A DNA stretch of 34,445 nt from a virus (Duplodnaviria; Heunggongvirae; Uroviricota; Caudoviricetes), in IMG/VR virus record IMGVR_UViG_2617271086_000002, positions 1-34,445 of that record, one strand, 5' to 3'. Both the position numbers and the translations under genes were made by a program. The notes below the pieces were generated by a model. It did not search any database and was not told the origin of the DNA. It saw only the letters and a program-made list of their open reading frames with translations. Shown in pieces: positions 1,657 to 32,734 of the stretch. Each line of letters starts with the position of its first letter. Within the stretch, counting starts at the first letter, position 1.

Positions 1657-2336
1657 CAGAGTAATACTCCCCATGCCCCTACATCAAAACCACTGATGAA
1701 TTCGTTATCCATATCAAAACCAAAAAATTTTGAGCCTTCCGATGGGGTTTCCACCGAAGGCGTTTCAATGCCACCCGCCCACACCCCGGCGGCTTTTACT
1801 GTGAGATACCCCTGTTTAATTGCCGCAATTAACTCACGCGATACATCTGAAATATCAGTATCAGGAAAGACCCAGACCGATATCGTCATGTCCTGGTTAT
1901 CGACTATCTGCATTCGCAGCCCGGATCCTGCTGTTGCAGCGTCAAGAATTGCTGGAAGCGAATCATTCCGTCCGTCCCAGTTATTAATCGCAATCTTCGC
2001 TTTAAGAATGACATGATAAGTTTCATCGCTGAGATACATGTATCCAGAATCAGGATCATATGGCCCCTGCCATACCCCCTGATCATATCCAAGCCCGTCG
2101 GTATCCCAGCTGAAATAGACACCTGAGATAGGCTGGCTGACAACACGGCTACGTCCGATCCACAATCCCAGAATGTCAAGTTGCACACCAACCGCAGAGT
2201 CAATATCAAATGCAGTAATCAGCCCTCTGGTGGCAGCCGCAACATCAATAAGCGGCCGGGTCATCAGATCAACATGCGCAAGAAATTTAGGTTTGGTGGC
2301 GTGGTAGTTCGTGATTAGTTCGGTGTATTTGCTCAT
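1656..2336 (-). CDS. Baseplate/tail-fibre-associated tail protein (Mu gp48 / DUF2313-like)
   Basis: 226 aa ORF (MSKYTELITNYHATKPKF...) lying between the baseplate J-like gene and the tail fibre gene, coupled to both. Confidence 0.55.
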   Translation of the reverse strand: MSKYTELITNYHATKPKFLAHVDLMTRPLIDVAAATRGLITAFDIDSAVGVQLDILGLWIGRSRVVSQPISGVYFSWDTDGLGYDQGVWQGPYDPDSGYMYLSDETYHVILKAKIAINNWDGRNDSLPAILDAATAGSGLRMQIVDNQDMTISVWVFPDTDISDVSRELIAAIKQGYLTVKAAGVWAGGIETPSVETPSEGSKFFGFDMDNEFISGFDVGAWGVLL

Positions 2337-3532
2337 GACTCCACCGTTATAACGATATTTTCCGGGGTACAGGACGCAGATTCGTTGTATCTGATATCAA
2401 TGTTTGATGACGACAAAGCCCCCGGGGATTTCCCAATCGTCAGTTCCTGAATATCGTAATAGCGTGCATTCCCGCCACTCACCACGCCAAGATTCGCCGG
2501 TGAGTAAATGCGACTTAAAAGGACCGAATCACCAATCATCAGACTATTGATATAGTCGGAAATAGCCTGCTGGATCTGCTGCCCTATCTGTGAGGTATAA
2601 CCCGTAAAAACTTTTAATTTAATCCGGGCATAAACAGGCACATCACTGGAACGCGAGAATTTGATTACATGGGGATTGCCGTATTTATCCGGAACCGTAA
2701 CGGATGTTGTACCGTGAGTGGCTGTACCCTGGCCTTTATTCCCTCTGATAGCCTGAGCAATATCCGTCACATCACCGCCATCCACAATTACAGCAACAGA
2801 GTGTGGCGGTAACCCGTTACCGTCCTCCGAACCAGTATCGTTTTCATAGAGTTTGTGGCGGGTTACACCGGTAACATTAGAAACAGCACCATCCAGTGCT
2901 TCAAATGGGGTTATTGATGGCAACGCAACACTTTGCGACTGACGGATACGTAACTCCGCGTCAGTTTCTGCCGGAGAGCCAACAGTAGCCGCAGCAGGAT
3001 TAGTTACCGAAACCCAGCCACGGGTTGGCGTATTAATTTCAGTGATAGTTCCAGGCAGCGCCGCCACTGCACCACTGACGGAACATTTTGCGGTCGCCAT
3101 CACTGTACCATCCACGCCGACCACCACTGAAGCAGGCAAACGCCATATCACATTATTACTGTCTTTCACGCTGCCATTAATGATGGTTGTTCCGGCAGTT
3201 CCTGTAAGAAGCAAATCAACCGTAGAGTTCGTCGCGCCTTTACGTGAAATACCATTTATTTTCACGTTACTGGTCAGTGCAGCCCCATAGCCGGTTGCCG
3301 GTGAAAAACAGTTGTAGACAGTTATCGCCATATTATTGGCATCATGAATCGCCAGCGCCATCAGAGCCACCATCTGGCCGTCTTTGCTGTCCGGTTCGAG
3401 GTAGGCATCACTGCCATAAATCTGCTGAAAATAGCTAATCAGGGTGCTGAGTATCGTCTGATAATCAGGCGCACTGATCCCCTCTGCGGTTACCTTTGCA
3501 GATAAACCAAGAGAATCAAGGTTCAGAGCCAT
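2333..3532 (-). CDS. Baseplate J-like protein (Mu gp47 / P2 gpJ family)
   Basis: 399 aa ORF in the canonical position after the gp25/W-like gene; size and composition fit baseplate J. Confidence 0.7.
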   Translation of the reverse strand: MALNLDSLGLSAKVTAEGISAPDYQTILSTLISYFQQIYGSDAYLEPDSKDGQMVALMALAIHDANNMAITVYNCFSPATGYGAALTSNVKINGISRKGATNSTVDLLLTGTAGTTIINGSVKDSNNVIWRLPASVVVGVDGTVMATAKCSVSGAVAALPGTITEINTPTRGWVSVTNPAAATVGSPAETDAELRIRQSQSVALPSITPFEALDGAVSNVTGVTRHKLYENDTGSEDGNGLPPHSVAVIVDGGDVTDIAQAIRGNKGQGTATHGTTSVTVPDKYGNPHVIKFSRSSDVPVYARIKLKVFTGYTSQIGQQIQQAISDYINSLMIGDSVLLSRIYSPANLGVVSGGNARYYDIQELTIGKSPGALSSSNIDIRYNESASCTPENIVITVES

Positions 3533-3885
3533 TACGCCTCCGATGTAACAGTCGTTATTCCATAAAGAGTGTCGATTTCAGCGGAAAACATGACACGTCG
3601 GGTCGTGGTATCCACCGTAGTATTGAAAGAGAGGATTGATTTAACGCCCCGCGTTTCGAGGATGCGCTTACGGATCGCCAGGTTGTAGGTTTCCGGCTTC
3701 TGCTTACCGAGTACGGACTGGATCCACGGAGTCCCTTCGGTGGTATCGAGAAACCATTGCCCATACCACAATTCGAATCGCGTTTTTACCGCCTGCGCCA
3801 CGGCCTCCGGTGAGTTAATCAGCCAGGTGTCATCACCGCTGCCAAAGGTATAATCGCCATCGGCGTCTTCACGTCTGTATCGCAT
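3532..3885 (-). CDS. Baseplate wedge protein (gp25 / GPW-like)
   Basis: 117 aa ORF between the spike and J-like genes, translationally coupled on both sides. Confidence 0.5.
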   Translation of the reverse strand: MRYRREDADGDYTFGSGDDTWLINSPEAVAQAVKTRFELWYGQWFLDTTEGTPWIQSVLGKQKPETYNLAIRKRILETRGVKSILSFNTTVDTTTRRVMFSAEIDTLYGITTVTSEA

Positions 3886-4640
3886 CAGTTAGGCGCTCCT
3901 GTGTTACCGCCGCCGGTCTGTACTCCGCCGTGCGTGTGCGTCATCAGGCTCTTACCACCAGCTTTTACATCGTTAGTCACCGTGACAGGGCCAAGCATCG
4001 TCGCGGTGCCGCCGCTTTCGCCCATCCCCTGAGAGAGATTCCCGTTTATTGTCACGTTGCCGTTTAGCGTGATGGTGGGTGATGTGATCGTGGTTCCTCC
4101 TTCTGCTGTCGCCGTCAGCGCGCCGGGGGTTTTAACCGTGATGTTATGGCCTGCGGCAACTTCCACAAACGCAGCGCCATCATCAGTACGCAGTTGCGCG
4201 GCGCTGGTGCTGATTCCGCTGATTTTCTGCGCCTGAGACTGCGGACCGACGATACAGAACGCATCCGATAAATCATGCATTCTGTCATCGACAGGCTCCT
4301 GTACCCCGCCGTTCTGCCACCAGAAATCGATGCAGCGATCGGCAAAAATCACCAGACATTCATCGCCGGCTTTCACCGGGAAAGTTAACGTGCAGCCGCC
4401 GCCGCGCGGAAATATCACCGGCACATCCACCAGCAGGGGTAATGTCGTCGACTGGTTGATTCCATTTGAGTCCGGCTCATAGCCTTTAATCGCAGGTTGA
4501 ACAACCACTGTTACCGTGTCCGGATCAAATGACTGGACGATGCCGGGCATAGAAACACGCAGCGCCGACATGACAGAGCCAGCAAGTCTTACATCGGCCT
4601 GTTCTTTGCTACCAAGTTGAGCGCTTAAAGAAACGGGCAT
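3885..4640 (-). CDS. Baseplate central spike protein (Mu gp45 / P2 gpV-like)
   Basis: 251 aa ORF with a Gly/Thr-rich C-terminus (..HTHGGVQTGGGNTGAPN) typical of spike proteins. GGAG ribosome-binding site upstream of the ATG at 4640. Confidence 0.6.
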   Translation of the reverse strand: MPVSLSAQLGSKEQADVRLAGSVMSALRVSMPGIVQSFDPDTVTVVVQPAIKGYEPDSNGINQSTTLPLLVDVPVIFPRGGGCTLTFPVKAGDECLVIFADRCIDFWWQNGGVQEPVDDRMHDLSDAFCIVGPQSQAQKISGISTSAAQLRTDDGAAFVEVAAGHNITVKTPGALTATAEGGTTITSPTITLNGNVTINGNLSQGMGESGGTATMLGPVTVTNDVKAGGKSLMTHTHGGVQTGGGNTGAPN

Positions 4641-4659
4641 TCATATGTCTCCAGAAAGT

Positions 4660-4683
4660 AAAAAACCCGCCGGGTGGCGGGTT
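4660..4683 (-). terminator. Rho-independent terminator downstream of the DUF4282-like moron gene
   Basis: Minus-strand reading gives CCCGCC-ACCC-GGCGGG followed by a T6 run (plus strand: aaaaaacccgccgggtggcggg). It lies 17 nt after the stop at 4700. Confidence 0.7.
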
Positions 4684-4699
4684 CATTATTGAAGTTTCA

Positions 4700-4939
4700 T
4701 TACTGCTTGTTTGCTTCTAACGCTTCAGCTATTCGGCGAAGATACTCATTGTTTTTAAATGAAACCATGATGCACTCAAAGAATATTCGGCAAAATACAG
4801 CACATAACAAAAGCACTAAAGCGCCAGCAGCCTTCCCATTAACAAACGTTATAATGGCGGCAACAACCAGAAGTAACATTGTGATGCCATACAGAACGTT
4901 GATGATTTTTGGAGTTATTAATTTATCAAATCCGAACAT
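4700..4939 (-). CDS. Small inner-membrane protein (DUF4282-like) encoded by a moron
   Basis: 79 aa ORF (MFGFDKLITPKIINVLYGITMLLLVVAAIITF...) with two hydrophobic helices. It has its own AAGGA ribosome-binding site, a candidate promoter upstream (perfect TATAAT on minus = plus 4976-4981) and its own terminator. Sequence is AT-rich. Confidence 0.6.
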   Translation of the reverse strand: MFGFDKLITPKIINVLYGITMLLLVVAAIITFVNGKAAGALVLLLCAVFCRIFFECIMVSFKNNEYLRRIAEALEANKQ

Positions 4940-4975
4940 GTGACAAATTCCTTATCGTGAAAGTAGAAGTATCAC

Positions 4976-5003
4976 ATTATAATTACGAGTGATTAATCAA
5001 CAA
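4976..5003 (-). promoter_or_regulatory. Candidate sigma70 promoter for the DUF4282-like moron
   Basis: Minus-strand TATAAT (plus 4976-4981) with a TTGTTG -35-like hexamer 16 nt upstream, about 37 nt upstream of the ATG at 4939. Confidence 0.4.
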
Positions 5004-5078
5004 TCTTTTTGCATGGAAAGGAACCGATGATTTTCGGCGCATCCATGCTGTTCTGCAGAAGCTGGACGCCAATGTAAT

Positions 5079-5414
5079 TCACTTCACCTTCCGGCAATCG
5101 TACGTCCAAAATTCCCGAGGCTCGTCCATATTTTTGCGGATAACTTCAACGTTGAGGATCGCTTTTTTGTTTCGTTTGATGTAGTCCATACCTAACCAAC
5201 GTCCAGTATTAGGATCAGGTAACATCCATTGCATCATGACATTATCGAAATCGTCTTTTTGTTTCAAAAAGGTCATTTTTTGTGTTTCTGGCTTTTGACC
5301 ATTGATGTGCATGAGGCCATCATTACCAGCATCAAAGCGGAATGGTCCGCACTGCGTTGCCGCCGAAACGGTTAACGGCAGGGCCAAGAATAAACAAAAA
5401 AATACTTTTTTCAC
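5079..5414 (-). CDS. Secreted/periplasmic protein of unknown function (moron) with a cleavable signal peptide
   Basis: 111 aa ORF beginning MKKVFFCLFLALPLTVSA|ATQ (Sec-type signal peptide, AXA-like cleavage site). GTG start overlaps the hub gene stop (GTGA), with a GGAGA ribosome-binding site 6 nt upstream. AT-rich, unlike the flanking tail genes. Confidence 0.55.
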   Translation of the reverse strand: MKKVFFCLFLALPLTVSAATQCGPFRFDAGNDGLMHINGQKPETQKMTFLKQKDDFDNVMMQWMLPDPNTGRWLGMDYIKRNKKAILNVEVIRKNMDEPREFWTYDCRKVK

Positions 5415-6445
5415 TCTACATCTCCGACTTTGTCCAAAGTGCCTTTTGCCAATAGTTCTTTGCCACCTTTAGCCAGGCAAAGCAGGTCCATATACCACGC
5501 CTGACCTCGGGTGTCGCCAGTATAATCAATGCTGCCCACAATGTAATCACCGTCAGTATTAATGCTGGCAGGCTGTGACATGCCTGGCAGACCGTTAACG
5601 TAGAGATTACCGTCGCTTTCAGACTCATCCAGTCGTGCTGGCGATTTCGCTACCTGGTCATTACTCAAAGAGGCACGGTATACAGATGCCTGATCCAGAC
5701 GAATAAGCCCACCGAGCTTAATATTTGGATTAATCAGACATCTGACATTTACGCCAGCTCCCATCGTCTGCTGTGGCATACCGATAAGCCCGGTGTTAGC
5801 ATTCAACACCGTAGCAACACCAATATATTTATCTTCAGGAACAATATTTACCAGATTATTTTCATACCACCAGTTAGCTTTACACTGCCCTGCGATATGA
5901 TTCATCAACCTTGATGTGTTTTGATAAACAACGCGACCTCTGGGAAATACCGTTTCCGGCATGTCAGGAACTGCACCGGATTCGATGCCATATGGTTCGA
6001 ATGATTTCATACCCAGACTGAAAAGATCGCTGTACTTCCAGCCAGCTGCCACTGTGGTTTTCACACTTGCGTTCAGGTGACCTTCCCAGCTGTCAATACA
6101 CTGCAACATGATCCAACTGTCTGTGGCATTATCTTTACCAGTGACAGTAAAACGGATATCTCCATTGAATATCATACCAACGTTTTCATCAGGATAATTA
6201 CCTGCTGCATCCGGTTGCCCCTTGTATCCGGCAATAACCTGTATACGCGAAAACTCCTTTTGCATAATCCGGTTCTGAGTGGTAGGGGACAGGTTATAAA
6301 CCTTAAAATTTCCAACGAATCCATTAAATATGCTCGCAGGCATTTTCTGAATATTGAAAGTGACTTTAAGCTCAGAAATTTTTATCCCGTCGCCCTTATC
6401 ATCAACAAGCAATAATTCAAAGTGACGCATCCAGTTTTTCGACAT
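5411..6445 (-). CDS. Baseplate hub / tail protein (Mu gp44-like, putative)
   Basis: 344 aa ORF between the tape measure-proximal genes and the spike gene in a Mu-like tail gene order. Confidence 0.5.
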   Translation of the reverse strand: MSKNWMRHFELLLVDDKGDGIKISELKVTFNIQKMPASIFNGFVGNFKVYNLSPTTQNRIMQKEFSRIQVIAGYKGQPDAAGNYPDENVGMIFNGDIRFTVTGKDNATDSWIMLQCIDSWEGHLNASVKTTVAAGWKYSDLFSLGMKSFEPYGIESGAVPDMPETVFPRGRVVYQNTSRLMNHIAGQCKANWWYENNLVNIVPEDKYIGVATVLNANTGLIGMPQQTMGAGVNVRCLINPNIKLGGLIRLDQASVYRASLSNDQVAKSPARLDESESDGNLYVNGLPGMSQPASINTDGDYIVGSIDYTGDTRGQAWYMDLLCLAKGGKELLAKGTLDKVGDVE

Positions 6446-6746
6446 TGTTACTCCGTGAAAACATAGAGGTGTGAGAGCGTTCCAAGATCGAATTGCGTCT
6501 TTCCTGCCCTGCCACGTCGCAGAGTACCACCAGCGAAAACCCGAGATTCATATATCGATACTGCGCCAGCAGGTCAGCCCCCGTAATCATCGGAATGCCT
6601 GAGATAATGGCGGAACCATTGCTGTCAGCAAGATCCAGAACCCAATACTCTCCGCGCCAGATGACAGACAGCTGATAAACCGTACCGTTAATTGTGGTGG
6701 CAAAAGTCTGATTGTCAGCAACCAGTGGGATTTCTACGGCCTCCAT
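6417..6746 (-). CDS. Tail protein, hypothetical
   Basis: 109 aa ORF in the tail operon, co-oriented and tightly packed with its neighbours. Confidence 0.4.
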   Translation of the reverse strand: MEAVEIPLVADNQTFATTINGTVYQLSVIWRGEYWVLDLADSNGSAIISGIPMITGADLLAQYRYMNLGFSLVVLCDVAGQERRNSILERSHTSMFSRSNNVEKLDASL

Positions 6747-6749
6747 GAA

Positions 6750-7400
6750 TCACCTTCCCAGAAATAAATTGCTCAGATACCCATCGACAGTGGTGACACC
6801 TTTTTGCGCTATCTGTGGCAGCGATTTCAGAATGGAATTATTCGGCGGCACCGTTGTTTTGGTGCCTGTATTCTGCACAGCAGACGTTCCGACTCCCTCG
6901 GTCATATTGTTTTTCGAGGCAACCCTGATTGACTGCGTGGAGGTAATAATCACCTCCCTGAGGGTAAGGGTCGCCAGAAGCACATTTTCACTACTCTTAT
7001 CGGTCGTGACCTCCAGCGTTTTTATCAACATATTGTTGTAAATACGCTTGCCGGTTGTCACATCGAAAGGAATACGATTCCGCTGCAGGTTAAGCAGTTC
7101 CTGATACAGTTCTTTCGGGCTCAGACCCAGTAAACTGGTAGCCGTCAGGTTACTGGCAAAATCAAGCAGCGATCCGCCTCCGGAAAAACCGGTTTCCATC
7201 ACAACCTCAGAAGGGCGCCTGAATGCGTGTTCTGATATATAACCAGCGCCCTCACCACTGGCACCAGCATTCGTGGGCTGTTCAACCGGATGTTCCGTAA
7301 TTTCCAGGGCGTCAGTGTGCTTTTCGGTAATAACCACATCAGGAATAATGATTCCTATTGAGCGGGTTCGCTGCTGCAGTAAAACAGATAAAAAGTCCAT
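6750..7400 (-). CDS. Tail/baseplate assembly protein, hypothetical
   Basis: 216 aa ORF immediately downstream of the tape measure gene, with start/stop abutting it at 7400. Confidence 0.4.
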   Translation of the reverse strand: MDFLSVLLQQRTRSIGIIIPDVVITEKHTDALEITEHPVEQPTNAGASGEGAGYISEHAFRRPSEVVMETGFSGGGSLLDFASNLTATSLLGLSPKELYQELLNLQRNRIPFDVTTGKRIYNNMLIKTLEVTTDKSSENVLLATLTLREVIITSTQSIRVASKNNMTEGVGTSAVQNTGTKTTVPPNNSILKSLPQIAQKGVTTVDGYLSNLFLGR

Positions 7401-9406
7401 TACGCAGGTCCTTTCAATTGCTGTACCGCCCTGGCATTTACAGCCCCCTGCTTGTCAGCGATCAGATTAGCCGCCTCCTGAGGGTTGTTAACTCCATGAA
7501 CATTTATAACAGTCTGCTGGTTAAGGCTGCCAGCGGCGGCCTGATACGCCAGCGGGCTGTTCCAGTTTGAATAACCTTCTTTGCGCGCCATCGACTGCAT
7601 CAATGCTCCCATAGTCTGGGGATCTGTAAGATTCAATATTGCATTCGGTGATACTCCCATCCATTTCGCAACATCCTGTGCATACTTTTTCGGATCGTTG
7701 TTATCACCTGCCGGGGCCCAGGTACTGACAATATCCTGAATAGTCTGTAATGCCCGTCCGGTTGTTTTCCCGGTAAAGTAACGCATGAGCTGGTTTTTCA
7801 TCGCCTCCCAGCCCTCAAGAGCTGATTCGAAAAACCGGAACCCTTTACCGCTCACCGGGCGAATGTTCCCTGGGTTATTGTTGCGATCAGCAAGAGTACC
7901 GCCGCCGGGGATGTCGGGCTGGACGTTGGAGCCATGCACTACACCGTTACTCTGTCCCTGCCGGACAACTTTACCGGGTCCCCCGTGCAACCAGTCCATC
8001 CACGCAGGCCATTCACGGACCTCACTGACATCCCTGCGTCCGATATCTGTTTTTATACCAATAGCAGCCAGCGTGTCGCCGATAATTCGCTTCGTATACC
8101 TCAGTGAAGATTTTGCGCTATCGGCAATATTTTCTCTGTCACTAACAATATAGCCCGCGTAAAGCGCCCACAATTTAAGCCATGGTGGGACCGGTAAACC
8201 TGATATTTTTCCGAAAGCCCCCAGAACCTTGGATACCCAGACACCCGCGATGAATGTACCGAGGATTTCCAGTGCATTTTGCCAGCCGCCAACACCATCT
8301 TTTAGTTCCAGAAGGTGATCACGAAGCCAGGTGATCGCATCCTTCGCTTTATCTATTGCCGGTTGCCATTTTTCCCAGTCGATAAGACTGTTACCGCCTT
8401 CTTTCCATGTTTTGTAGTCTTCCCACAAGAGACCGAGAGCAACGATCAGACCGGTAATCAGCCCTATAGGTGACATCCAGAAAGTAGAGTTAAGTATCCG
8501 CATGGCGACAACCAGACCGCCGATAACCTCTATCAGGGTTTTCGTTTCGGCATCCAGTTTCCCCCACCACTCGATGATATCTCCGACACCATCGACTATC
8601 CGAAATGCTACCCGCCCGACTATCTCACCCAGCCAGAGGATCCCCTTTATGACCTTTGTGATGGTGACTTCAATTTTGGGAAAATTTTCAATTATCTTTT
8701 TGCGCAGGTTATCAATCTGCCCCGCCAGTCCGTCCGCAAGATTCGATCCGATTTTGTCCCGCGCCATCCCGGCCATTTCACCGAGCGATTTCAGCGAGGT
8801 CATAAACCGGTTTGACGATAAGGCAGCCTGATCGGCATTAAATCCGATCGCTTTCACCATTTCTGAATACTGAGCGCTGAACTGCCCCACTCCGCGACGC
8901 ATAGCCATCAGGGTATTTTCGTCAATGCCCAGCATCTGCGCATACTGGTTAGCCCGGTAATACGGCATGCTGCTGAGCTTCTGGCCGACGCCCGTAAAGA
9001 TAGCGGCCATGTCGCGCATGTTACCGCTGGCGTCACGGGTCTGTACCCCCAGACGATTCAGAAATCCCTCCGCCCCAGGATTATTACGAATAAACCGGGA
9101 GAGGTTTTCCAGAGAAGATCGCGCAGCGTCCACGCTGCCGCCAACCTGCGAAACCGCATAGCCAATAGACTGAATTCCCTGGACTGTCGCGCCGGTGCGC
9201 TGTGACGCCCAGTAAAGATTATCCAGGCCGGAGGCAATCTTAGCCGTAAAGGCCACCACGGACAGTGCAGCTCCTTCAACGGCCAACCCCATTTTGATGA
9301 CATTTGCAGTTGTACCGGCGAGGACAGAACAGAACTTTTTCGCGCCTGCCTCATCCACACTGAAGCCAAGCGAGACGAGGAAATCTTTAATAGTTTCAGC
9401 GTTCAT
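7400..9406 (-). CDS. Tail tape measure protein. Start set at the ATG at 9404-9406, which has a GGAGAGAGG ribosome-binding site; the ORF track uses an upstream TTG at 9427.
   Basis: 668-675 aa ORF with an Ala/Gly-rich helical N-terminus and hydrophobic central segments, located after the tail chaperone. Confidence 0.8.
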   Translation of the reverse strand: MNAETIKDFLVSLGFSVDEAGAKKFCSVLAGTTANVIKMGLAVEGAALSVVAFTAKIASGLDNLYWASQRTGATVQGIQSIGYAVSQVGGSVDAARSSLENLSRFIRNNPGAEGFLNRLGVQTRDASGNMRDMAAIFTGVGQKLSSMPYYRANQYAQMLGIDENTLMAMRRGVGQFSAQYSEMVKAIGFNADQAALSSNRFMTSLKSLGEMAGMARDKIGSNLADGLAGQIDNLRKKIIENFPKIEVTITKVIKGILWLGEIVGRVAFRIVDGVGDIIEWWGKLDAETKTLIEVIGGLVVAMRILNSTFWMSPIGLITGLIVALGLLWEDYKTWKEGGNSLIDWEKWQPAIDKAKDAITWLRDHLLELKDGVGGWQNALEILGTFIAGVWVSKVLGAFGKISGLPVPPWLKLWALYAGYIVSDRENIADSAKSSLRYTKRIIGDTLAAIGIKTDIGRRDVSEVREWPAWMDWLHGGPGKVVRQGQSNGVVHGSNVQPDIPGGGTLADRNNNPGNIRPVSGKGFRFFESALEGWEAMKNQLMRYFTGKTTGRALQTIQDIVSTWAPAGDNNDPKKYAQDVAKWMGVSPNAILNLTDPQTMGALMQSMARKEGYSNWNSPLAYQAAAGSLNQQTVINVHGVNNPQEAANLIADKQGAVNARAVQQLKGPA

Positions 9407-9635
9407 TATCCTCTCTCCATTTCTCAATGCGCCGCTGGTTATCCGCTTTTACCGCCAGATGGTCATTCAAGAGAGCAATGTCGTACAAATCGACAGAGCC
9501 ATCTTTAAGTGCTGTATAAGGAATTAACCCGGCGTCAACCGGATTGAGAAGGTAAGACAGCCCGTCCGGCAGGCTGTTAAACGTCAGCCCTGTTGCAGGC
9601 TCTGCGCCGTGCTGGTAAGGGGTGTAGGCAAAAAA
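9396..9635 (-). other. Programmed -1 ribosomal frameshift site and GT-type extension of the tail assembly chaperone
   Basis: The mRNA heptamer U_UUU_UUG (plus 9629-9635) is in the zero frame as AAU UUU UUG, 15 codons before the stop. The -1 frame is then open for 77 codons (AYTPYQHGAEPATGLTFNSLPDGLSYLLNPVDAGLIPYTALKDGSVDLYDIALLNDHLAVKADNQRRIEKWREDNER) and stops at 9396-9398, just past the tape measure ATG. Confidence 0.6.
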
Positions 9636-10036
9636 TTTCCCAGCGAATCGGCGACCACCCGCGCCACCAGCTGCAGCATGGTTAGCAGGTCGATATCATC
9701 GAACATCAGCTGACCGCTGTTGAATACCGGCGTCCATCCGTCCATGTGCTTACGTGACACTACGGCCAGGCAAGGATGAATAATCGCACTGGTGTCATCT
9801 TCGGTCAGGGAAGACAGTTCCTCAGCGATACGCGGGAGCATGGTTTCAAACACCGGTTTTAACTGCTCGAATTTCACGGTGTCGATTTTGCCATCAGCAG
9901 GCAAACGGGAGCGAATGCTCCCGAAATCTGACATCATTCCTGCCAGCACAGGCAGAAGTTTGCGGGTCACTTTCAGCTGATCAAAAACGCTGAGTTTTGC
10001 CGCGCGATATTTCACGCCTTTGATTTCGAATTCCAT
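9584..10036 (-). CDS. Tail assembly chaperone (G-like product, zero frame)
   Basis: 150 aa ORF between the tail tube and tape measure genes. It contains the slippery heptamer near its 3' end. Confidence 0.65.
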   Translation of the reverse strand: MEFEIKGVKYRAAKLSVFDQLKVTRKLLPVLAGMMSDFGSIRSRLPADGKIDTVKFEQLKPVFETMLPRIAEELSSLTEDDTSAIIHPCLAVVSRKHMDGWTPVFNSGQLMFDDIDLLTMLQLVARVVADSLGNFLPTPLTSTAQSLQQG

Positions 10037-10039
10037 GTA

Positions 10040-10480
10040 TTAAAACTCCCCGAGAACCTGGTCAATCTTGCCGCAGTCAAACACCCACGGCATCGTATTA
10101 CCGGTTTTAGCGTTGGCATTATCCGGTTGTTTCTGGAACGCAACACTACGTGCCGTGATGATGTCGCCGCTGACCTTGTTTCGGATCACAATAACGTTAT
10201 TCCCCCATGTGGCAGAAGACTGGCTCTGTGCGTTATACGCCAGCGACAATTTTTTATTTGTCGGTGATGTCTTCAGAAGGTTAACGGTAATCGTCCCGCT
10301 TTTATCTGCATGGAGACTGTGCATCACTTCGCCATCAGCACCGATGGTCATGGTGTTTTTAGGGCCGCCCATCGCAACCACAATCCCCTCTTCAGAACTT
10401 GCAGAACCGTACCCGAGGTCAATCGAACCGGTCGGCCCGGTCAGCGTCGCAGTGACATCCATAAAAGAATAGGTAGACAT
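10040..10480 (-). CDS. Tail tube protein
   Basis: 146 aa ORF immediately downstream of the sheath gene. Confidence 0.65.
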   Translation of the reverse strand: MSTYSFMDVTATLTGPTGSIDLGYGSASSEEGIVVAMGGPKNTMTIGADGEVMHSLHADKSGTITVNLLKTSPTNKKLSLAYNAQSQSSATWGNNVIVIRNKVSGDIITARSVAFQKQPDNANAKTGNTMPWVFDCGKIDQVLGEF

Positions 10481-10490
10481 TCACTTCCCC

Positions 10491-11636
10491 TTAGCGAACA
10501 ACGTTAATCTGTACGTCAGCGTAATGAACCGCGCCTGCAAGTTTTATTGCAGCCTGAATCACCGGAGCCTTACGGGCTTCACGTTCTGATTGTGCCTGTT
10601 CATCCAGCGGCTGGGCGTATACGTAATAACCTTTGGGCAGCGTGTCACCTGATGACAACTGGCCAAGGTCGCCCCCGTTCCATACGCCCGGAGCAATCAG
10701 TCCATTCTGAACGGCCTGATCCAGTGATTTTTCAACATTTGATAACAGTCGGGTAATACCGGCTTCAGTCTGGGGAACTTTCGTGGCGCTGGTATAAAGC
10801 AGGTTATAGAGGTTGGTCTGCACATAATTCTGTAACCAGTCCAGGCCGTGGCGTTCATCAAAGAAATCGCCGTTAGCCATCACTCCCTGCTGGAGGATAG
10901 CTGTATCATTCTGGTAGTACACGAACACATTGCAGTTTTTTGCATCAAGTGCCGATGCCTGGCTGACTGTCAGTGTTTCATACCCGACACCCGGCTCCTG
11001 CTTAAACTTGAGCGTAATCGCGGTATTACTGCCATTGAAATTAACCGTGAATGCCCGGCCAAATGCAGATAACGCAGCGTATTTATTACCCGATGAATAC
11101 TGAATAAAACTGCGTGAATATCCGGCGGTTTTCAGTTTTGATGCCAAATCATCGCTGGATGCAGTCTGCAGGCATTTCTCATCGCTTGTCGTAATCGCCA
11201 GAATACGGCTTACAGAAGAGGATTCGATCGCCGCAGCCACTTTCAGCCAGTCTGCATCCGGAATATCTTCATCGTCTGCAATCCCCAGCCCATACCATGA
11301 AGTATAATCGAGCATGGCATTCACAGCCTGCTCCAGCGTCTCAGTCGTGGCCTGTTCGCTGTCTCCCTTCGTTTTCACCCAACGACCAACAAAAACCTCC
11401 TGAGGTTTCGGTGATTGTGAGAAAAACACCTGCGCAGCCTTATATTCTGGTGATTCCACGCCAAAATCTTTTCCAATATCTTCCGCGGCAGAATAACGAC
11501 GAATGCGCTCACTTACCGGAATGATTGTGGACGGGCCGAGAATGAGTAATGCACCAAAATTTCGCCCTGATGCTGCACGCGGCGACATGATCACATCAAC
11601 ATTAACAACGTTTGATACAGGCAAGCCCTGTGCCAT
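10491..11636 (-). CDS. Tail sheath protein (contractile tail)
   Basis: 381 aa ORF upstream of the tube gene; size and position fit a myovirus sheath. Confidence 0.7.
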
Positions 11637-21434: not shown

Positions 21435-21977
21435 TTAATTAGTGAGTCCGGGGATTACGGTTTGCCCGTGCTGTTCAAGGCGTTCAATTCTCGCCAGTAG
21501 CTGAGGCTTCTTAATTTTTCCCCAGCGATTTAGCAGGCGACCTGACATGCTGGCAACATCCTTCTCTTTCATGTACTCCAGCATTACGGCATTTCGCTCT
21601 TCTTCAAATTGACGATTACCAACCTGAAGCATGGCGTACATCCAGTTGAATGCGTTGATGTAAGCAATTTTGATACGCATTGCTTCTTTTTTGGTGTAGG
21701 ACATAACCAAAAGCATCAACCCATCCTTGCGGAGACGGTAGAATTTTTGCGGCTTACCATTCTGTAACTCATTGTTTTTATAGCAAAGCTCAAAGTTGAG
21801 CTTTGTATCAAACTCAGGAGGGCAAGCTTCTATGGTTCGTTCAATGTCACGAACCACGTTCTTCGGCAGCTTTCCAAATGCTTTTGCCACCATAAAAGAA
21901 TCTGTAACCGGATCGTTGTTTGCTACAAAAATTAGGTCTCTGAAATCTATATCGTTAACAACGGTTGGGTAGTTCAT
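21435..21977 (-). CDS. Rha-family phage regulatory protein. Start at the internal ATG 21975-21977; the longer track ORF is rejected.
   Basis: 180 aa from MNYPTVVNDIDFRDLIFVANNDPVTDSFMVAKAFGKLPKNVVRDIERTIE..., with an AAGG ribosome-binding site upstream of this ATG. Confidence 0.65.
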   Translation of the reverse strand: MNYPTVVNDIDFRDLIFVANNDPVTDSFMVAKAFGKLPKNVVRDIERTIEACPPEFDTKLNFELCYKNNELQNGKPQKFYRLRKDGLMLLVMSYTKKEAMRIKIAYINAFNWMYAMLQVGNRQFEEERNAVMLEYMKEKDVASMSGRLLNRWGKIKKPQLLARIERLEQHGQTVIPGLTN

Positions 21978-22124
21978 TGCGTCTTTACCTTTTAGAAAGA
22001 TGAGCCTGTTCGCACAGAAAAGCCGTCCCCGAGATGGTCGCCACCATATACGGCAATTCTCAGGCTCAGCTTTCTGAAAGACTCGGGGTTTATATGCGCT
22101 GCGATGCGCGTTTACTGAGGACAC

Positions 22125-22148
22125 AAAAAAGCCCCGCAAATGCGAGGC
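22125..22148 (-). terminator. Rho-independent terminator downstream of Rz
   Basis: Minus strand GCCUCGC-AUUU-GCGGGGC (7 bp stem with one G-U pair) followed by a U6-7 run (plus 22125-22130 aaaaaa). Confidence 0.6.
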
Positions 22149-22322
22149 TAAATCCTGGTGTTTGTGATGACTGTCTCTTATCTCAACGCAGCCCCTTACC
22201 GCGCGCCAGATGCTCAATATCAAGCATCAGCAATGAGATGTTTAATCTGGATTCACTCCAGAAGTGATCACCACCCTGTCTACAGAGCCAGATGTGAAGG
22301 ATGATGAGTAAAATTATCGCTA

Positions 22323-22790
22323 TCATCGAAGGCATTGCGTCCTAATGTATTCCTGAAGCGCTCTCAGTGCTGTTTGGTCGCGGATAATTCCGTCCCGGAT
22401 ACCGAGAACGTTTCGTCCAGCAACTGGAGAGAGTTCGACGGTGGCATCATTGCCCATGCCGGAGGCGCCGGAGGTTTCGGCCGAGGATGGCACAGGGGAT
22501 TTTCCTTTGACGAGCACCCTGCCACCATTATCAAGCTTGCGCCGAAGAGCATCATTTTCAGCTTTCGCATCAGCTAACTCCTTCGTGTATTTAGCATCGA
22601 GTGCATCAGCAGTACGCTGACGCTGCTGCATGTCAGTAATGGTGGCAGTCGCCTGCTTCAGCTCACTGACTTTTTTATCGCGCTGCTCTTTGTAGGCGAT
22701 GGCGTTATCACGGTAGTGATTAACAGCCCATGACAGGCAAACGATGATGCAGATAACCAGAGCGGAGATAATCGCGGTTACTCTTCTCAT
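22323..22790 (-). CDS. Rz: Rz i-spanin
   Basis: 155 aa ORF closely similar to lambda Rz ([31 protein letters not shown]...). ATGA overlap with the R stop. Confidence 0.9.
22364..22570 (-). CDS. Rz1: Rz1 o-spanin lipoprotein, embedded in the +1 frame of Rz
   Basis: [21 protein letters not shown]... has a lipobox and a Pro-rich segment, as in lambda Rz1. Confidence 0.8.
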
Positions 22791-23263
22791 ACCTCAATCT
22801 CTCTGACCGTTCCGCCTGCTTCTTTGAATTTTGCAATCAGGCTGTCAACCTTATGCTCGAACTGACCATAACCAGCGCCCGGCAGTGAAGCCCAGATATT
22901 GCTGCAACGGTCGATAGCCTGACGGATATCACCGCGATCAATCATCGACAAAGCGCCACGTTCCTTAATCTGCTGCAATGCCACAGCGTCCTGGCTTTTC
23001 GGAGAGAAATCTTTCAGGCCAAGCTGCTTACGGTAGGCATCCCACCAACGGGAAAGAAGCTGGTAACGTCCGGCTGCTGTTGATTTGAGTTTTGGGTTTA
23101 GCGTGACAAGTTTGCGAGGGTGATCGGAGTAATCAGTGAATAGCTCTCCGCCTACAATGACGTCATAACCATGATTTCTGGTTTTCTGACGTCCGTTATC
23201 TGTTCCCTCTGACCACGCCAGCATATCGAGGAACGCCTTACGTTGATTATTGATTTCCACCAT
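22787..23263 (-). CDS. R: Endolysin (lambda R-type lytic transglycosylase)
   Basis: 158 aa ORF that matches lambda R from memory, apart from a few substitutions ([35 protein letters not shown]...). Confidence 0.95.
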
Positions 23264-23570
23264 CTTCTACTCCGGCTTTTTTAGCAGCGAAGCGTTTGAT
23301 AAGCGAACCAATCGAGTCAGTACCGATGTAGCCGATAAACACGCTCGTTATATAAGCGAGATTGCTACTTAGTCCGGCGAGGTCGAGAAGATCACGAATG
23401 AACCAGGCGATAATGGCGCACATCGTTGCGTCGATTACTGTTTTTGTAAACGCACCGCCATTATATCTGCCGCGAAGGTACGCCATTGCAAACGCAAGGA
23501 TTGCCCCGATGCCTTGTTCCTTTGCCGCGAGAATGGCGGCTAACAGGTCATTTTTTTCTGGCATCTTCAT
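23247..23570 (-). CDS. S: Holin (lambda S-type, dual-start MKM motif)
   Basis: 107 aa ORF that matches lambda S107 from memory, apart from a few substitutions ([43 protein letters not shown]...). Confidence 0.95.
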
Positions 23571-23812: not shown

Positions 23813-23888
23813 TGGTGCTGGTTAACGGACTTGAACCGCTACCCATTCGCTTACAAGGCGACTGCTCTACCATTGGAGCTAAACCAGC
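23813..23888 (-). tRNA. tRNA with anticodon UGU (tRNA-Thr), 76 nt including encoded CCA
   Basis: Minus-strand sense sequence GCTGGTTTAGCTCCAATGGTAGAGCAGTCGCCTTGTAAGCGAATGGGTAGCGGTTCAAGTCCGTTAACCAGCACCA. It has a 7 bp acceptor stem, GG in the D-loop, anticodon loop CTTGTAA, T-loop TTCAAGT and a 3' CCA. Confidence 0.7.
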
Positions 23889-23893
23889 ATATT

Positions 23894-23968
23894 TGGCGGG
23901 ACAGCGTGGACTCGAACCACGATAAGAAGGTTAACAGCCTTCCGTAATGACCTTTATACGACTGACCC
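23894..23968 (-). tRNA. tRNA-like gene with anticodon GUU (tRNA-Asn), 75 nt. It has two U-U mismatches and could be a degenerate copy.
   Basis: Minus-strand sense sequence GGGTCAGTCGTATAAAGGTCATTACGGAAGGCTGTTAACCTTCTTATCGTGGTTCGAGTCCACGCTGTCCCGCCA. It has a perfect anticodon stem (GAAGG/CCTTC), loop CTGTTAA, T-arm CGTGG-TTCGAGT-CCACG and CCA; acceptor pair 4-68 and D-stem pair 13-22 are U-U. Confidence 0.5.
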
Positions 23969-24031: not shown

Positions 24032-24550
24032 CTAAATGGCTAATTGCATGTCAAGGCTTTTAACGGCAACATGCTTAACTTTCTCAACACGTTTACGCAT
24101 TTTGAAAGCATTTTGCATTGGCTGGTATAAAACAAATAATGACGCTTTCAGGATGTCGTCAATTTCGTTTCTACAGGTTGCCAGTGAAGGTTTTCTCCAT
24201 CCCTCGCCACCACGTCCACACATCTTGCGTGGCTTTGCAGTCGCGTGATAGTAGGATGCAATTGCTCGCTTAGATGAACCATGAGCGTAGTAGCTGAGGA
24301 GGATGCCAAAGGCTTTCTTGTCAATGTACATGACGGAATCGACGACCTGAGAAATCAACATTCCATCATCATCATTGCACATTGGCCTTGTCATAACTCT
24401 TCCCGGCTCTACGCTCTCCATGAACTTCGCTATTACGCTGCTCATGCGCTTTTCCAGACGACCTGAATAAACCCATGCGCCCCACAGTTCAAGCCAGCCA
24501 TTCAGCCACTCGTGCTGCTCTTTGGTGAGGTTTAGTTCTCTTATGCCCAT
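24032..24550 (-). CDS. Q: Late-gene antiterminator Q (Phage_antitermQ-type family)
   Basis: 172 aa ORF in the canonical position between the nin region and the lysis cassette. It carries WGAW and C-N-DDDGMLI motifs recalled for this family. Confidence 0.65.
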   Translation of the reverse strand: MGIRELNLTKEQHEWLNGWLELWGAWVYSGRLEKRMSSVIAKFMESVEPGRVMTRPMCNDDDGMLISQVVDSVMYIDKKAFGILLSYYAHGSSKRAIASYYHATAKPRKMCGRGGEGWRKPSLATCRNEIDDILKASLFVLYQPMQNAFKMRKRVEKVKHVAVKSLDMQLAI

Positions 24551-31268: not shown

Positions 31269-31919
31269 ATGAATACACAACTGATGGGTGAGCGTATTCG
31301 CGCTCGCAGAAAAGAACTCAAGATTAGGCAGGCTGCCCTTGGCAAGATGGTTGGCGTGTCTAATGTTGCTATTTCCCAATGGGAGCGATCTGAAACTGAG
31401 CCCAATGGCGAAAACCTATTGGCCTTAGCCAAGGCTTTGCAGTGCTCCCCTGATTACCTGTTGAAAGGAGAGGATAGTCTTTCAAACATTGCCTATCACA
31501 GCAGGCATGATCCAAGAGGTTCGTATCCTCTAATTAGTTGGGTAAGCGCAGGATGTTGGATGGAAGCTGTAGAGCCATATCATAGGCGTGCAATAGATAA
31601 CTGGTACGACACAACGGTAGATTGTTCTGAAGACTCTTTTTGGCTCGACGTTAAAGGCGATTCAATGACTGCCCCGGCAGGACTGAGTATTCCTGAGGGG
31701 ATGATTATTCTCGTCGACCCAGAAGTCGAGCCACGTAATGGAAAGTTGGTAGTCGCCAAACTTGAAGGAGAAAACGAGGCGACATTCAAAAAGTTAGTTA
31801 TTGATGCCGGTAGAAAATTCCTGAAACCACTCAATCCACAATACCCAATGATTGAAATCAATGGGAACTGTAAAATCATTGGCGTTGTCGTTGATGCCAA
31901 GCTAGCAAACCTTCCTTAA
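31269..31919 (+). CDS. c2: C2 repressor (P22 c2 / lambda cI family, LexA-like autocleaving repressor)
   Basis: 216 aa ORF matching P22 C2 from memory, with an N-terminal HTH (QAALGKMVGVSNVAISQWERS) and a C-terminal S24 peptidase-like domain (..GDSM..). Confidence 0.9.
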   Translation: MNTQLMGERIRARRKELKIRQAALGKMVGVSNVAISQWERSETEPNGENLLALAKALQCSPDYLLKGEDSLSNIAYHSRHDPRGSYPLISWVSAGCWMEAVEPYHRRAIDNWYDTTVDCSEDSFWLDVKGDSMTAPAGLSIPEGMIILVDPEVEPRNGKLVVAKLEGENEATFKKLVIDAGRKFLKPLNPQYPMIEINGNCKIIGVVVDAKLANLP

Positions 31920-32509: not shown

Positions 32510-32734
32510 ATGAATCAGACATACATTCCATCATGCTTGAGAAATCTGCCAAAGCAGAAAGCAAAGCCCCGCAAGCAAGCCATAAAGGACGCTAAGGCAG
32601 AAGTTATCGATAAGGCCATTAACCTGCTTAGAGAGGAGTTAAGGAGTGAAAAGCTCAACGGAATGCTGATGCCTTATCAGCGCGGATATCTTTCGGCGAT
32701 TAGTAAGCTGGAAGTATTGAAGAGTGAATTATGA
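32510..32734 (+). CDS. Hypothetical Lys-rich small protein (first gene of the accessory cassette)
   Basis: 74 aa ORF with a GAGG ribosome-binding site, starting 4 nt after the N stop. Confidence 0.45.
   Translation: MNQTYIPSCLRNLPKQKAKPRKQAIKDAKAEVIDKAINLLREELRSEKLNGMLMPYQRGYLSAISKLEVLKSEL

Follow-up and report, generated by a model that had tools for sequence, protein, structure and literature searches.

Two small open reading frames separate the baseplate hub gene from the spike gene of the prophage studied here, which raises the question of whether they belong to the tail module or were added to it as cargo. The initial annotation had regarded both as morons within the baseplate operon, i.e., a 111-aa protein with a Sec signal peptide coupled to the hub gene, and a 79-aa membrane protein with transcription signals of its own. 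We use the term moron in the sense of Juhala and Hendrix, as summarised in PMC3594210. Both open reading frames are present in the window (the whole stretch of DNA analyzed, 34,445 nt), and the same starts are called by PGAP in a 99%-identical E. coli prophage; a prophage of this identity is carried by E. coli 30EVA2. According to our main reading, to which we assign a probability of about 0.7, the hub–spike interval holds two contents, namely a conserved core gene encoding the 111-aa protein, predicted to be exported, and a bounded, exchangeable cargo slot, which in the window holds a DUF4282 gene. The genes concerned are as follows:

5411–6445, minus strand: baseplate hub gene (PF22759, E 1.8e-7; PHROG 196 'baseplate hub', E 2.8e-80; GC 0.446), the stop codon of which overlaps the GTG start of the 111-aa gene
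5079–5414, minus strand: gene for a 111-aa protein, predicted to be an exported beta-barrel, conserved partner of the hub gene (PHROG 3443, E 7e-48; AF2 model, pLDDT 88, eight strands)
4700–4939, minus strand: gene for a 79-aa DUF4282 protein, predicted helical hairpin of the inner membrane, cargo (moron) by PF14110, PHROG 12129 (E 8e-48), AF2, and GC
3885–4640, minus strand: membrane-puncturing spike gene, downstream flank of the slot (PF18352, E 3.9e-44, plus GpV Apex)
24032–24550, minus strand: Q-type antiterminator gene (PF06530, E 1.1e-25)

The window represents a lambdoid, Q-antiterminated E. coli prophage with a SEN34-type contractile tail, and encodes a lambda-type holin, an endolysin, and Rz. 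The tail module had been called Mu-like, which turned out to be a loose label: it is a SEN34/Brunovirus-type simple baseplate in a lambdoid prophage, with a Dit-like protein, a plug of the Pam3 gp18 type, and an E217 gp41-like hub. Members of the module lineage include SEN34/Brunovirus, Klebsiella phage Mulock, vB_EcoM phages, and many Enterobacterales prophages, and the module is carried by approximately 7% of complete E. coli genomes, with 369 E. coli genomes containing it. Rfam detected no RNA family in the hub–spike region; its sole finds in the window were two tRNAs located elsewhere.

The cargo slot extends from the stop codon of the 111-aa-family gene to a conserved intrinsic terminator located 16 nt before the spike gene. 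Its content in the window comprises the following two features:

4687–4992, no strand assigned: exchangeable cassette of approximately 306 bp, in place of which sibling prophages carry other cargo (delimited by junction sequences and by the BLAST breakpoints with L002 and L003; GC 0.359)
4993–5067, minus strand: relic of a type-B (STY1065-like) 111-aa-gene allele, of which the last approximately 25 codons plus the stop remain (L004 and SEN34 match it at the DNA level)

Homology between the window and prophage L002 stops at 4686/4687 and restarts at 4990, and the intervening cargo of L002 encodes a 190-aa protein and a YafO toxin. In L003, the 113-aa homologue ends in a stop codon that is directly followed by an Arc/Arc/Ant module. 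The other relatives likewise carry unrelated cargo, i.e., a 241-aa protein and a HEPN-like 142-aa protein (L018), a zinc-ribbon open reading frame on the reverse strand (L017), a 184-aa protein with multiple transmembrane segments and a 56-aa protein (L026), or a 170-aa protein (L027), and unrelated proteins also occupy the slot in SEN34, Mulock, Klebsiella phages, and a Pantoea prophage. Related tail modules lacking the insert thus do exist, a check that had been proposed along with the moron claim, and the cargo proteins of the relatives belong to different PHROGs. The cassette itself was found in 86 of 5426 E. coli genomes, with an identity of ≥99% in 84 of the 86. When the window was compared with L004, the DUF4282 protein was 100% identical, whereas the adjacent 111-aa protein and the hub showed only 32% and 48% identity, respectively; by this comparison, the cassette is exchanged without the hub side moving along. 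The relic reads ...LLQNSMDAPKIIGSFPCKKIVD*, the same as the 3' end of the L004 gene, and these 75 nt of the other 111-aa-gene allele are best read as a recombination scar that marks the junction. Homologous recombination in the conserved flanks would swap the slot content between prophages.

Base composition was compared with 25 late genes as a reference (mean GC 0.515, sd 0.034). The 79-aa open reading frame, described beforehand as AT-rich, has a GC content of 0.375 (z −4.0) and falls into the lowest 0.6% of 240-nt windows. DUF4282 homologues also occur outside the slot: a Klebsiella siphophage and phage GF-2 each have one behind the tape measure gene, and Pantoea has one behind the lysis genes. 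In all three contexts, the DUF4282 gene is followed by a terminator. As a compositional outlier that is replaced at the same position in siblings, is found in other phage contexts, and has an intrinsic terminator behind it, the 79-aa unit is a moron by the comparative definition, and this part of the initial annotation stands. An Erwinia prophage shows the same order of hub, 111-aa, DUF4282, and spike genes, with a DUF4282 protein 65% identical to that of the window and neighbours at 38–79%, so that the cassette can be an old resident of the slot and not a recent add-on.

Hotspots with variable anti-phage cargo have been described for P2-like prophages (PMC9122126). Like those, the slot has a fixed position with conserved core flanks, between which unrelated cargo alternates in similar prophages. 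Unlike those, it is bordered by a conserved intrinsic terminator and lies inside a baseplate operon, in a phage lineage that combines a lambdoid genome with a contractile tail of the SEN34 type. The DUF4282 cassette and its hotspot are therewith a well-documented example of a known pattern and not a new one; what they provide is a cargo hotspot defined to the base pair, inside the baseplate operon of a common enterobacterial prophage family. As the slot holds toxin, HEPN-like, antirepressor, and membrane-protein cargo, it can be mined for new exclusion or defence genes, like the hotspots of P2 and P4. PADLOC, applied to the cargo proteins of the relatives, returned a single marginal match (HEPN_IX, E 0.009).

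The second part of the moron claim concerned transcription, for which the following signals were considered:

4998–5003, minus strand: best candidate −35 element, TTGTTG, weak (3/6 matches, 16-nt spacer), within the 111-aa-gene relic
4976–4981, minus strand: candidate −10 hexamer TATAAT, 37 nt upstream of the ATG of the 79-aa gene
4949–4953, minus strand: ribosome-binding site AAGGA, 9 nt before the same ATG
4657–4684, minus strand: intrinsic terminator hairpin (stem 4663–4684) and T-run, 16 nt before the spike start, downstream border of the slot

The TATAAT hexamer on which a promoter had been proposed is present, and the 34 kb contain only one other exact copy on that strand. It was not among the calls of the promoter scanner, and promoter-like sites in the region occur at chance level (5 found vs. 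5.1 expected). We also considered a conserved promoter travelling with the DUF4282 gene and rejected it, as the aligned upstream regions from five contexts revealed no common sequence. In phage GF-2, the DUF4282 gene adjoins the tape measure gene without a spacer. Given the weak −35 element, the chance-level sites, the lack of a common upstream sequence, and this abutment, expression of DUF4282 may come simply from the late operon. The ribosome-binding site attributed to the 79-aa gene was found as described, and the stretch from it to the ATG, GTCACATG, is common to the window and the Erwinia copy.

An intrinsic terminator had been assigned to the 79-aa gene as its own. The hairpin and T-run are real (nine pairs followed by the T-run; dG −16.7 kcal/mol, z −3.0), but they are a conserved feature of the backbone and not of the cassette: 13 of 14 hub–spike loci (12 comparison loci plus L001, the latter counted via its 99% identity to the window) have the hairpin ahead of the spike gene, with compensatory changes in the stem and with every cargo type, L017 being the locus without it. 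In a lysogen, transcripts from the candidate promoter would end at this hairpin, in which case no tail genes would be made; during lytic growth, Q-modified RNA polymerase would read through it.

The 79-aa protein had been described as DUF4282-like with two membrane helices, and both descriptions were borne out. It matches PF14110 with an E-value of 1.2e-10 and 42.2 bits against a gathering cut-off of 27, residues 2–71 aligning to profile positions 2–85/86, i.e., the full domain. The AF2 model (pLDDT 85.6) comprises helices 9–33 and 37–78, in agreement with hydropathy. From this model, we infer a hairpin in the inner membrane with both termini in the cytoplasm. The conserved residues of the family, i.e., the N-terminal LITPKI, R51 and E55 in helix 2, and the C-terminal FKNNEYLRRI, would face the cytoplasm in the predicted topology, while the predicted periplasmic loop is short and variable; conservation is thus concentrated on the cytoplasmic side. 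The family is broad: 660 cluster representatives match it at E ≤ 0.001, and most of these are small proteins. Our literature search found no paper mentioning DUF4282. Both proteins of the interval match their families at full length (7e-48 for PHROG 3443, 8e-48 for PHROG 12129, and 1.2e-10 for DUF4282), and since none of these families carries a functional annotation, membership explains nothing about mechanism.

A known system of similar design is gp15 of HK97, a small moron product of the inner membrane, encoded in the tail operon, by which superinfecting phage are excluded at the step of DNA entry (PMC3594210). Produced from the prophage, gp15 blocks DNA entry and leaves the receptor untouched, and its specificity maps to the tail (PMC3594210). 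Like HK97 gene 15, the DUF4282 gene encodes a small inner-membrane protein on an AT-rich add-on within a lambdoid tail operon, in late-gene orientation and with transcription signals on either side, the promoter being a candidate here. Unlike gp15, the protein of the window belongs to DUF4282 with two membrane helices and has no YebO match; apart from DUF4282, a Pfam scan at E ≤ 0.1 listed nothing but a weak match to YbhQ, an inner-membrane protein of E. coli (E 8e-4), and hence gave no homology to YebO/gp15. The positions differ as well, the gene of the window lying between hub and spike, and HK97 gene 15 between the chaperone and tape measure genes. By analogy, our best guess, which we hold tentatively, is that the DUF4282 protein may act in superinfection exclusion at the inner-membrane DNA-entry step, like HK97 gp15. 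PADLOC-DB 2.0 gave no match at E ≤ 1 for the 79-aa protein or the 111-aa protein, and the conserved motifs on the cytoplasmic side would suit a role outside phage entry just as well. A family without published function thereby gains a testable hypothesis.

Among the alternatives, the one that survives best takes the cassette as lysogen-expressed cargo promoting host fitness in a way unrelated to exclusion, e.g., as a modulator of envelope stress or transport. The breadth of the DUF4282 family, the YbhQ similarity, and the lack of a match to the defence models would all fit such a role. However, all nine DUF4282 copies for which the context was read lie in phage or prophage-derived DNA, and seven of the nine adjoin tape measure or tail-tip genes of three tail types, which recalls target-linked exclusion genes such as that for HK97 gp15. 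We therefore regard a host-fitness role as possible but unlikely.

Alternatively, the DUF4282 protein might not be lysogen cargo at all, but an inner-membrane factor of the lytic cycle expressed from the late operon, e.g., a holin-like or lysis-timing protein. Class II holins cross the membrane with two helices, keep both termini cytoplasmic, have a charged C-terminus, and are encoded in the lysis cassette and needed for lysis. In general terms, their topology resembles the one predicted for the DUF4282 protein, which has a charged C-terminus as well, and all DUF4282 copies seen are oriented with the late genes. The copy adjoining the GF-2 tape measure gene, the Pantoea gene just behind holin, lysozyme, and Rz, and the weakness of the candidate promoter point in the same direction. 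Against this, the phage already possesses a lambda-type holin, an endolysin, and Rz, and its DUF4282 gene lies outside the lysis cassette. In siblings, among them the induced phage vB_EcoM-606R2, the position is taken by unrelated cargo, so that the lytic cycle can do without the gene, and the strongly conserved cytoplasmic motifs together with a membrane-embedded Arg/Glu pair are atypical of holins. A lytic role thus appears quite unlikely.

The claim that the 111-aa gene is likewise a moron was contradicted by the comparison. In 13 of 14 loci from five genera (Escherichia, Salmonella, Klebsiella, Erwinia, and Pantoea), the gene directly behind the hub gene encodes a PHROG 3443 homologue; the spacing in the relatives ranges from a 4-nt overlap to a gap of 7 nt. 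In the window, the GTG start and the hub stop codon share nucleotides within GTGA; the overlap had been noted initially. Because the gene overlaps or abuts the hub stop codon, there is no room for a promoter, and no hairpin was found directly behind it in the window; the gene therefore has neither promoter nor terminator of its own, and is transcribed and translated together with the late operon. Its GC content (0.426, z −2.6) is close to that of the adjacent hub gene (0.446). In total, 134 homologues were found, in Enterobacterales, and 20 phage records match by tblastn. The comparative evidence identifies the 111-aa gene as a core gene of the tail-module lineage and not as cargo, which turns one supposed moron into an uncharacterised, widely conserved protein that is predicted to be exported. 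Its independent acquisition alongside the DUF4282 gene, i.e., the view of both open reading frames as accessory genes gained by the baseplate operon, could still draw on the fact that both genes lie below the module mean in GC, that neither product has a tail-protein domain, and that both are envelope-directed. In addition, L019, the sole exception among the 14 loci, lacks the 111-aa gene and encodes a 241-aa lipoprotein of the outer-membrane type in its place, so that the 111-aa protein is not indispensable. However, its constant position, its divergence together with the hub, its hub-like composition, and its tight linkage without own signals render two independent morons very unlikely.

The signal peptide was located as follows:

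5361–5414, minus strand: part coding for the Sec signal peptide, residues 1–18, with predicted cleavage VSA/A (three-part pattern; low N-terminal pLDDT)

Its presence had been proposed from the sequence, and the comparison strengthens the proposal: the three parts (MKK, VFFCLFLALPL, and TVSA with AxA-type cleavage before the following A) are kept in 42 of 42 aligned homologues, while the sequence varies freely. Matches to the lipobox pattern are incidental (2 of 42 homologues). C22 and C107 are invariant in the aligned homologues, and the AlphaFold model shows an eight-stranded beta-barrel (pLDDT 88). The mature product of approximately 93 aa is probably a barrel closed by a C22–C107 disulfide. 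We give almost no weight to the idea that the protein is a virion or tail-assembly component whose hydrophobic N-terminus is no functional export signal, although its gene keeps its place among the baseplate genes and is closely packed against that of the hub. The canonical signal peptide keeps its form in all 42 aligned homologues, and the two cysteines and the compact predicted barrel would suit a periplasmic location. In L019, the position is taken by a lipoprotein of the outer-membrane type, and no similarity between the 111-aa protein and known tail proteins was detected.

Since virions are assembled in the cytoplasm and a Sec-exported protein cannot become part of them, the 111-aa protein probably acts in the envelope. 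An exported protein packed against a baseplate hub gene is unusual. Database and literature searches on the family yielded the following: NCBIfam has no matching model, PGAP calls one allele 'STY1065/STY2022 family', a literature search under these locus tags gave nothing relevant, and the SEN34 paper contains no proteomics and no discussion of the baseplate. A PDB profile search returned only chance matches to nanobodies, Foldseek against BFVD and PDB gave no structural relative at E ≤ 0.001, and comparison with MliC/PliC, Ivy, and T4 Spackle revealed neither a sequence match nor a specific fold match. As a possible counterpart, E217 gp42 was considered because it is encoded between the hub gp41 and the tip gp43, but it was rejected as it shows no signal peptide and no similarity; gp42 is absent from the text of the E217 virion structure paper.

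T4 Spackle carries a cleaved periplasmic signal, has a mature form of 75 aa with a disulfide, and inhibits the tail lysozyme (PMC7677548). Like Spackle (which acts with Imm), T5 Llp, and Cor, the 111-aa protein is small, phage-encoded, predicted to be exported, and apparently envelope-acting. Unlike Spackle, an alpha-helical bundle made early, it is a predicted beta-barrel expressed with the late genes, and its target is hypothetical. By this analogy, we infer that it may be an adsorption- or entry-directed factor, functionally comparable to Spackle, Llp, and Cor. The two proteins of the interval might even be combined into a two-layer entry barrier against phages with the same tail, a functional analogue of Spackle plus Imm. 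In such a barrier, binding by the barrel in the periplasm would be directed at the lytic-transglycosylase end of the incoming tape measure protein, or at the hub/spike tip, and the DUF4282 hairpin would prevent a channel from forming at the inner membrane. We consider this combination speculative and improbable; a weaker version of it would treat the hub-to-spike slot of SEN34-type tails as an unmined reservoir of new anti-phage genes. Regarding the supposed enzymatic end of the tape measure protein, no PF01464-type lytic transglycosylase domain was detected in the window's own tape measure protein, encoded at 7400–9427; the tape measure protein of the lineage is annotated as a lytic transglycosylase, with PF01464 matching the Erwinia homologue and PGAP giving this name to the E. 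coli homologues.

The tail genes of the window are all encoded on the minus strand, and two small genes, for proteins of 79 and 111 aa, separate the hub gene from the spike gene.

Tail genes and lambdoid marker genes of the window, with the basis of assignment
10491-11636, minus: sheath (position in block)
10040-10480, minus: tube (position in block)
9584-10036, minus: chaperone (position in block)
7400-9427, minus: tape measure protein (homologues annotated 'lytic transglycosylase')
6750-7400, minus: Dit-like protein (PF21821)
6417-6746, minus: plug (PF22479, Pam3 gp18)
5411-6445, minus: hub (PF22759, E217 gp41; PHROG 196 'baseplate hub', E 2.8e-80)
5079-5414, minus: 111-aa ORF (PHROG 3443)
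4700-4939, minus: 79-aa ORF (DUF4282, PHROG 12129)
3885-4640, minus: spike (PF18352 and GpV apex)
3532-3885, minus: sheath initiator (PGAP name in relatives)
2333-3532, minus: baseplate J (PGAP name in relatives)
1656-2336, minus: wedge (DUF2612/'baseplate wedge 1', PGAP; PF11041 on the Erwinia homologue)
760-1674, minus: fibre (position in block)
329-763, minus: fibre assembly (position in block)
31269-31919: cI-like repressor
24032-24550: Q antiterminator (PF06530, E 1.1e-25)
22323-23570: lambda-type holin, endolysin and Rz

The remaining sequence belongs to a lambdoid prophage, which also carries replication genes, nin-region genes, and terminase and head genes; its nearest relative is an E. 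coli prophage with 99% identity across 3.4 kb. The tail module, initially called Mu-like, is better named SEN34/Brunovirus-type and was present in 369 of 5426 complete E. coli genomes.

The initial annotation had interpreted both small genes as morons, with the 79-aa gene insulated by a candidate promoter and a terminator of its own. All sequence details behind this proposal (the GTG/GTGA overlap, TATAAT, AAGGA, and the hairpin) were found in the window, and the two-moron reading proved half right: it holds for the 79-aa unit and fails for the 111-aa gene. The 79-aa protein matches DUF4282 (E 1.2e-10), and the GC content of its gene (0.375; z = −4.0 against 25 late genes) falls in the lowest 0.6% of windows. 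The segment at 4687-4992, hereafter the cassette, has a GC content of 0.359 and sharp borders in BLAST comparisons with sibling prophages. In L002, one of these siblings, identity to the window extends up to 4686, breaks, and returns at 4990.

Sibling prophages hold unrelated cargo in the same slot, i.e., the interval from the stop of the 111-aa gene to the hairpin preceding the spike gene. L002 encodes a YafO-family toxin there together with a 190-aa protein, and L003 has a P22-type antirepressor gene accompanied by two genes of the Arc family. The slot contains a 241-aa protein and a HEPN-like 142-aa protein in L018, a multi-TM 184-aa protein and a 56-aa protein in L026, and a 170-aa protein bearing the motif RNxxxH in L027. 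SEN34, Mulock, and a Klebsiella phage carry further unrelated proteins, a Pantoea prophage carries a 105-aa signal-peptide protein, and the slot of L017 (E. coli NRZ96606; 3739-4164) is filled by an unannotated reverse-strand small zinc-ribbon ORF (CxxC...CxxC motifs) together with a bidirectional terminator. These cargo proteins fall in different PHROGs. As a moron within the tail operon of a lambdoid phage, the DUF4282 unit is a new case of a familiar type, and the slot adds another instance to the prophage cargo hotspots already described. The cassette itself was found in 86 of the 5426 genomes (at least 99% identity in 84). An Erwinia rhapontici prophage shows the identical gene order (hub, 111-aa gene, DUF4282 gene, spike), with 65% identity for DUF4282 and 38-79% for the neighbouring proteins; given this shared order and divergence, the cassette can be an old resident of the slot.

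The hairpin, proposed as terminator of the 79-aa unit, is real (9 bp, GC-rich, with a T-run, at 4657-4684) but belongs to the slot and not to the cassette. Of the 14 loci carrying the hub-spike module, 13 have it 15-20 nt ahead of the spike start codon, whatever the cargo type and in relatives from five genera (L001, taken together with the 99% identical window; L002-L004, L006-L008, L018, L019, L021, L023, L026, and L027); in L017, this usual hairpin was not found. Its stem shows compensatory changes (CCCGCC/GGCGGG, CCCAGC/GCTGGG, GCCCAC/GTGGGT, and CCTGCC/GGCGGG). By established lambdoid biology, a terminator conserved partway through a late operon makes sense in a phage that relies on Q antitermination. 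Q-modified polymerase would pass the hairpin, and transcripts begun within the cargo in a lysogen would end there. Because the terminator is conserved inside the late operon, we infer that expression of the genes from spike to fibre depends on Q antitermination.

Regarding the candidate promoter, the TATAAT at 4976-4981 lies 37 nt upstream of the 79-aa ATG, which is served by an AAGGA ribosome-binding site; across 34 kb, the coding strand has just one other TATAAT. The best −35 element matches at 3/6 positions, and a promoter scanner neither called the site nor revealed an enrichment of such sites. Upstream regions of DUF4282 genes are unrelated across five contexts; by eye, plausible hexamers precede the Klebsiella (TTGATA-18-TATAAC) and Pantoea (TTGAAA-17-TAAGAT) copies.

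Comparison with L004, a relative with another (STY1065-like) allele of the 111-aa gene, points to independent movement of the cassette. Identity is 100% for DUF4282 and 82-99% for the proteins on the spike side, and only 32-61% for the Dit-like, plug, hub, and 111-aa proteins. Downstream of the window's own 111-aa allele, the 'intergenic' spacer at 4993-5067 contains, with identical sequence, an intact 3' end (~25 codons and the stop) of the L004/STY1065-type allele. This fragment is a recombination scar, the hub side of the module having been swapped. In Klebsiella siphophage prophages and phage Kp4864-1 (L009-L012 and L028), a DUF4282 homologue (58-60% identical; 5001-5243 or 3995-4243) lies immediately 3' of the tape measure gene, with distal genes of a siphovirus-type tail on its other side and a 3' hairpin very like that of the window. 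Edwardsiella phage GF-2 (L005) carries a homologue after the tape measure gene, adjoining an Arc/Arc/Ant island, and Pantoea prophages carry one 3' of the lysis cassette. A hairpin with T-run follows every homologue in these contexts. The Arc/Arc/antirepressor (P22 immI-like) module is itself tail-operon cargo in two unrelated phages (L003, 2299-3850; GF-2, 4920-6316).

AlphaFold predicts a helical hairpin for the 79-aa protein (helices 9-33 and 37-78; pLDDT 85.6), in agreement with the proposed two-helix protein. Conserved residues cluster in three places: LITPKI at the N-terminus, the helix 2 residues R51 and E55, and FKNNEYLRRI at the C-terminus. The membrane-spanning cores are variable, as is the loop of 3 residues. 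The positive-inside rule suggests that both termini are cytoplasmic. Cytoplasmic ends and this conservation pattern would argue against a periplasmic receptor block and favour a site of action in the inner membrane or on its cytoplasmic side. In three tail types the gene recurs beside tail-tip or tape measure genes, a placement expected of a target-linked exclusion gene, and the HK97 gp15 moron is the closest functional precedent. We give inner-membrane superinfection exclusion, suggested by analogy, a probability of roughly one in three. A fitness role unrelated to phage appears unlikely, and a lytic-cycle role more improbable still.

The 111-aa gene is no moron, as PHROG 3443 homologues lie 3' of the hub gene in 13 of the 14 related loci (Escherichia, Salmonella, Klebsiella, Erwinia, and Pantoea), overlapping it or starting within 7 nt; in the window, the GTG start overlaps the hub stop (GTGA). 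Its GC content (0.426) is near that of the hub gene (0.446). The gene occurs in 20 phage records, with 134 homologues in Enterobacterales, and neither Pfam nor NCBIfam has a model for the family. The proposed signal peptide is supported by a basic N-terminus, hydrophobic core, and AxA-type site in 42 of 42 aligned homologues; the signal sequence varies freely, the site directly precedes a conserved mature start (...QCGPF), and C22 and C107 are invariant. The only exception after the hub is L019 (E. coli OkiPb01690; 4804-5529), where neither a PHROG 3443 gene nor further cargo was found. It encodes a lipoprotein of 241 aa (LTSC lipobox with Ser at +2; PGAP name 'HMG-box domain-containing protein'), so that a predicted envelope-targeted protein again occupies this position. 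Because Sec-exported proteins cannot enter virions assembled in the cytoplasm, we read the 111-aa protein as a probable envelope factor that is produced alongside the late proteins but is not structural. An adsorption- or entry-directed role is our best, still tentative, guess, with Spackle, Llp, and Cor as candidate comparisons; the protein is possibly linked to the lytic-transglycosylase domain with which tape measure homologues are annotated. The analysis thus yields exact borders for the slot and a testable hypothesis for each of two families that lack a known function.

Several further features were observed. Genes for tRNA-Thr (TGT) and tRNA-Asn (GTT) lie at 23813-23968, between the Q antiterminator and holin genes. 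In the early-left region, adjoining the repressor, 32731-33423 encodes a 230-aa protein with a strong match to Nmad5 (nucleotide modification associated domain 5; E 8e-71). Another classic site for accessory genes, flanked by the lysis cassette and the HNH/terminase genes, is occupied by a regulator of the Rha family that has an ORF11CD3 domain (21435-22223). Finally, RefSeq naming of a 117-aa baseplate protein (L019 3633-3986 versus L002/L004; WP_001270632/4 family) is inconsistent: depending on the record, it is called 'contractile injection system sheath initiator', 'thioredoxin domain-containing protein', or 'hypothetical protein'.
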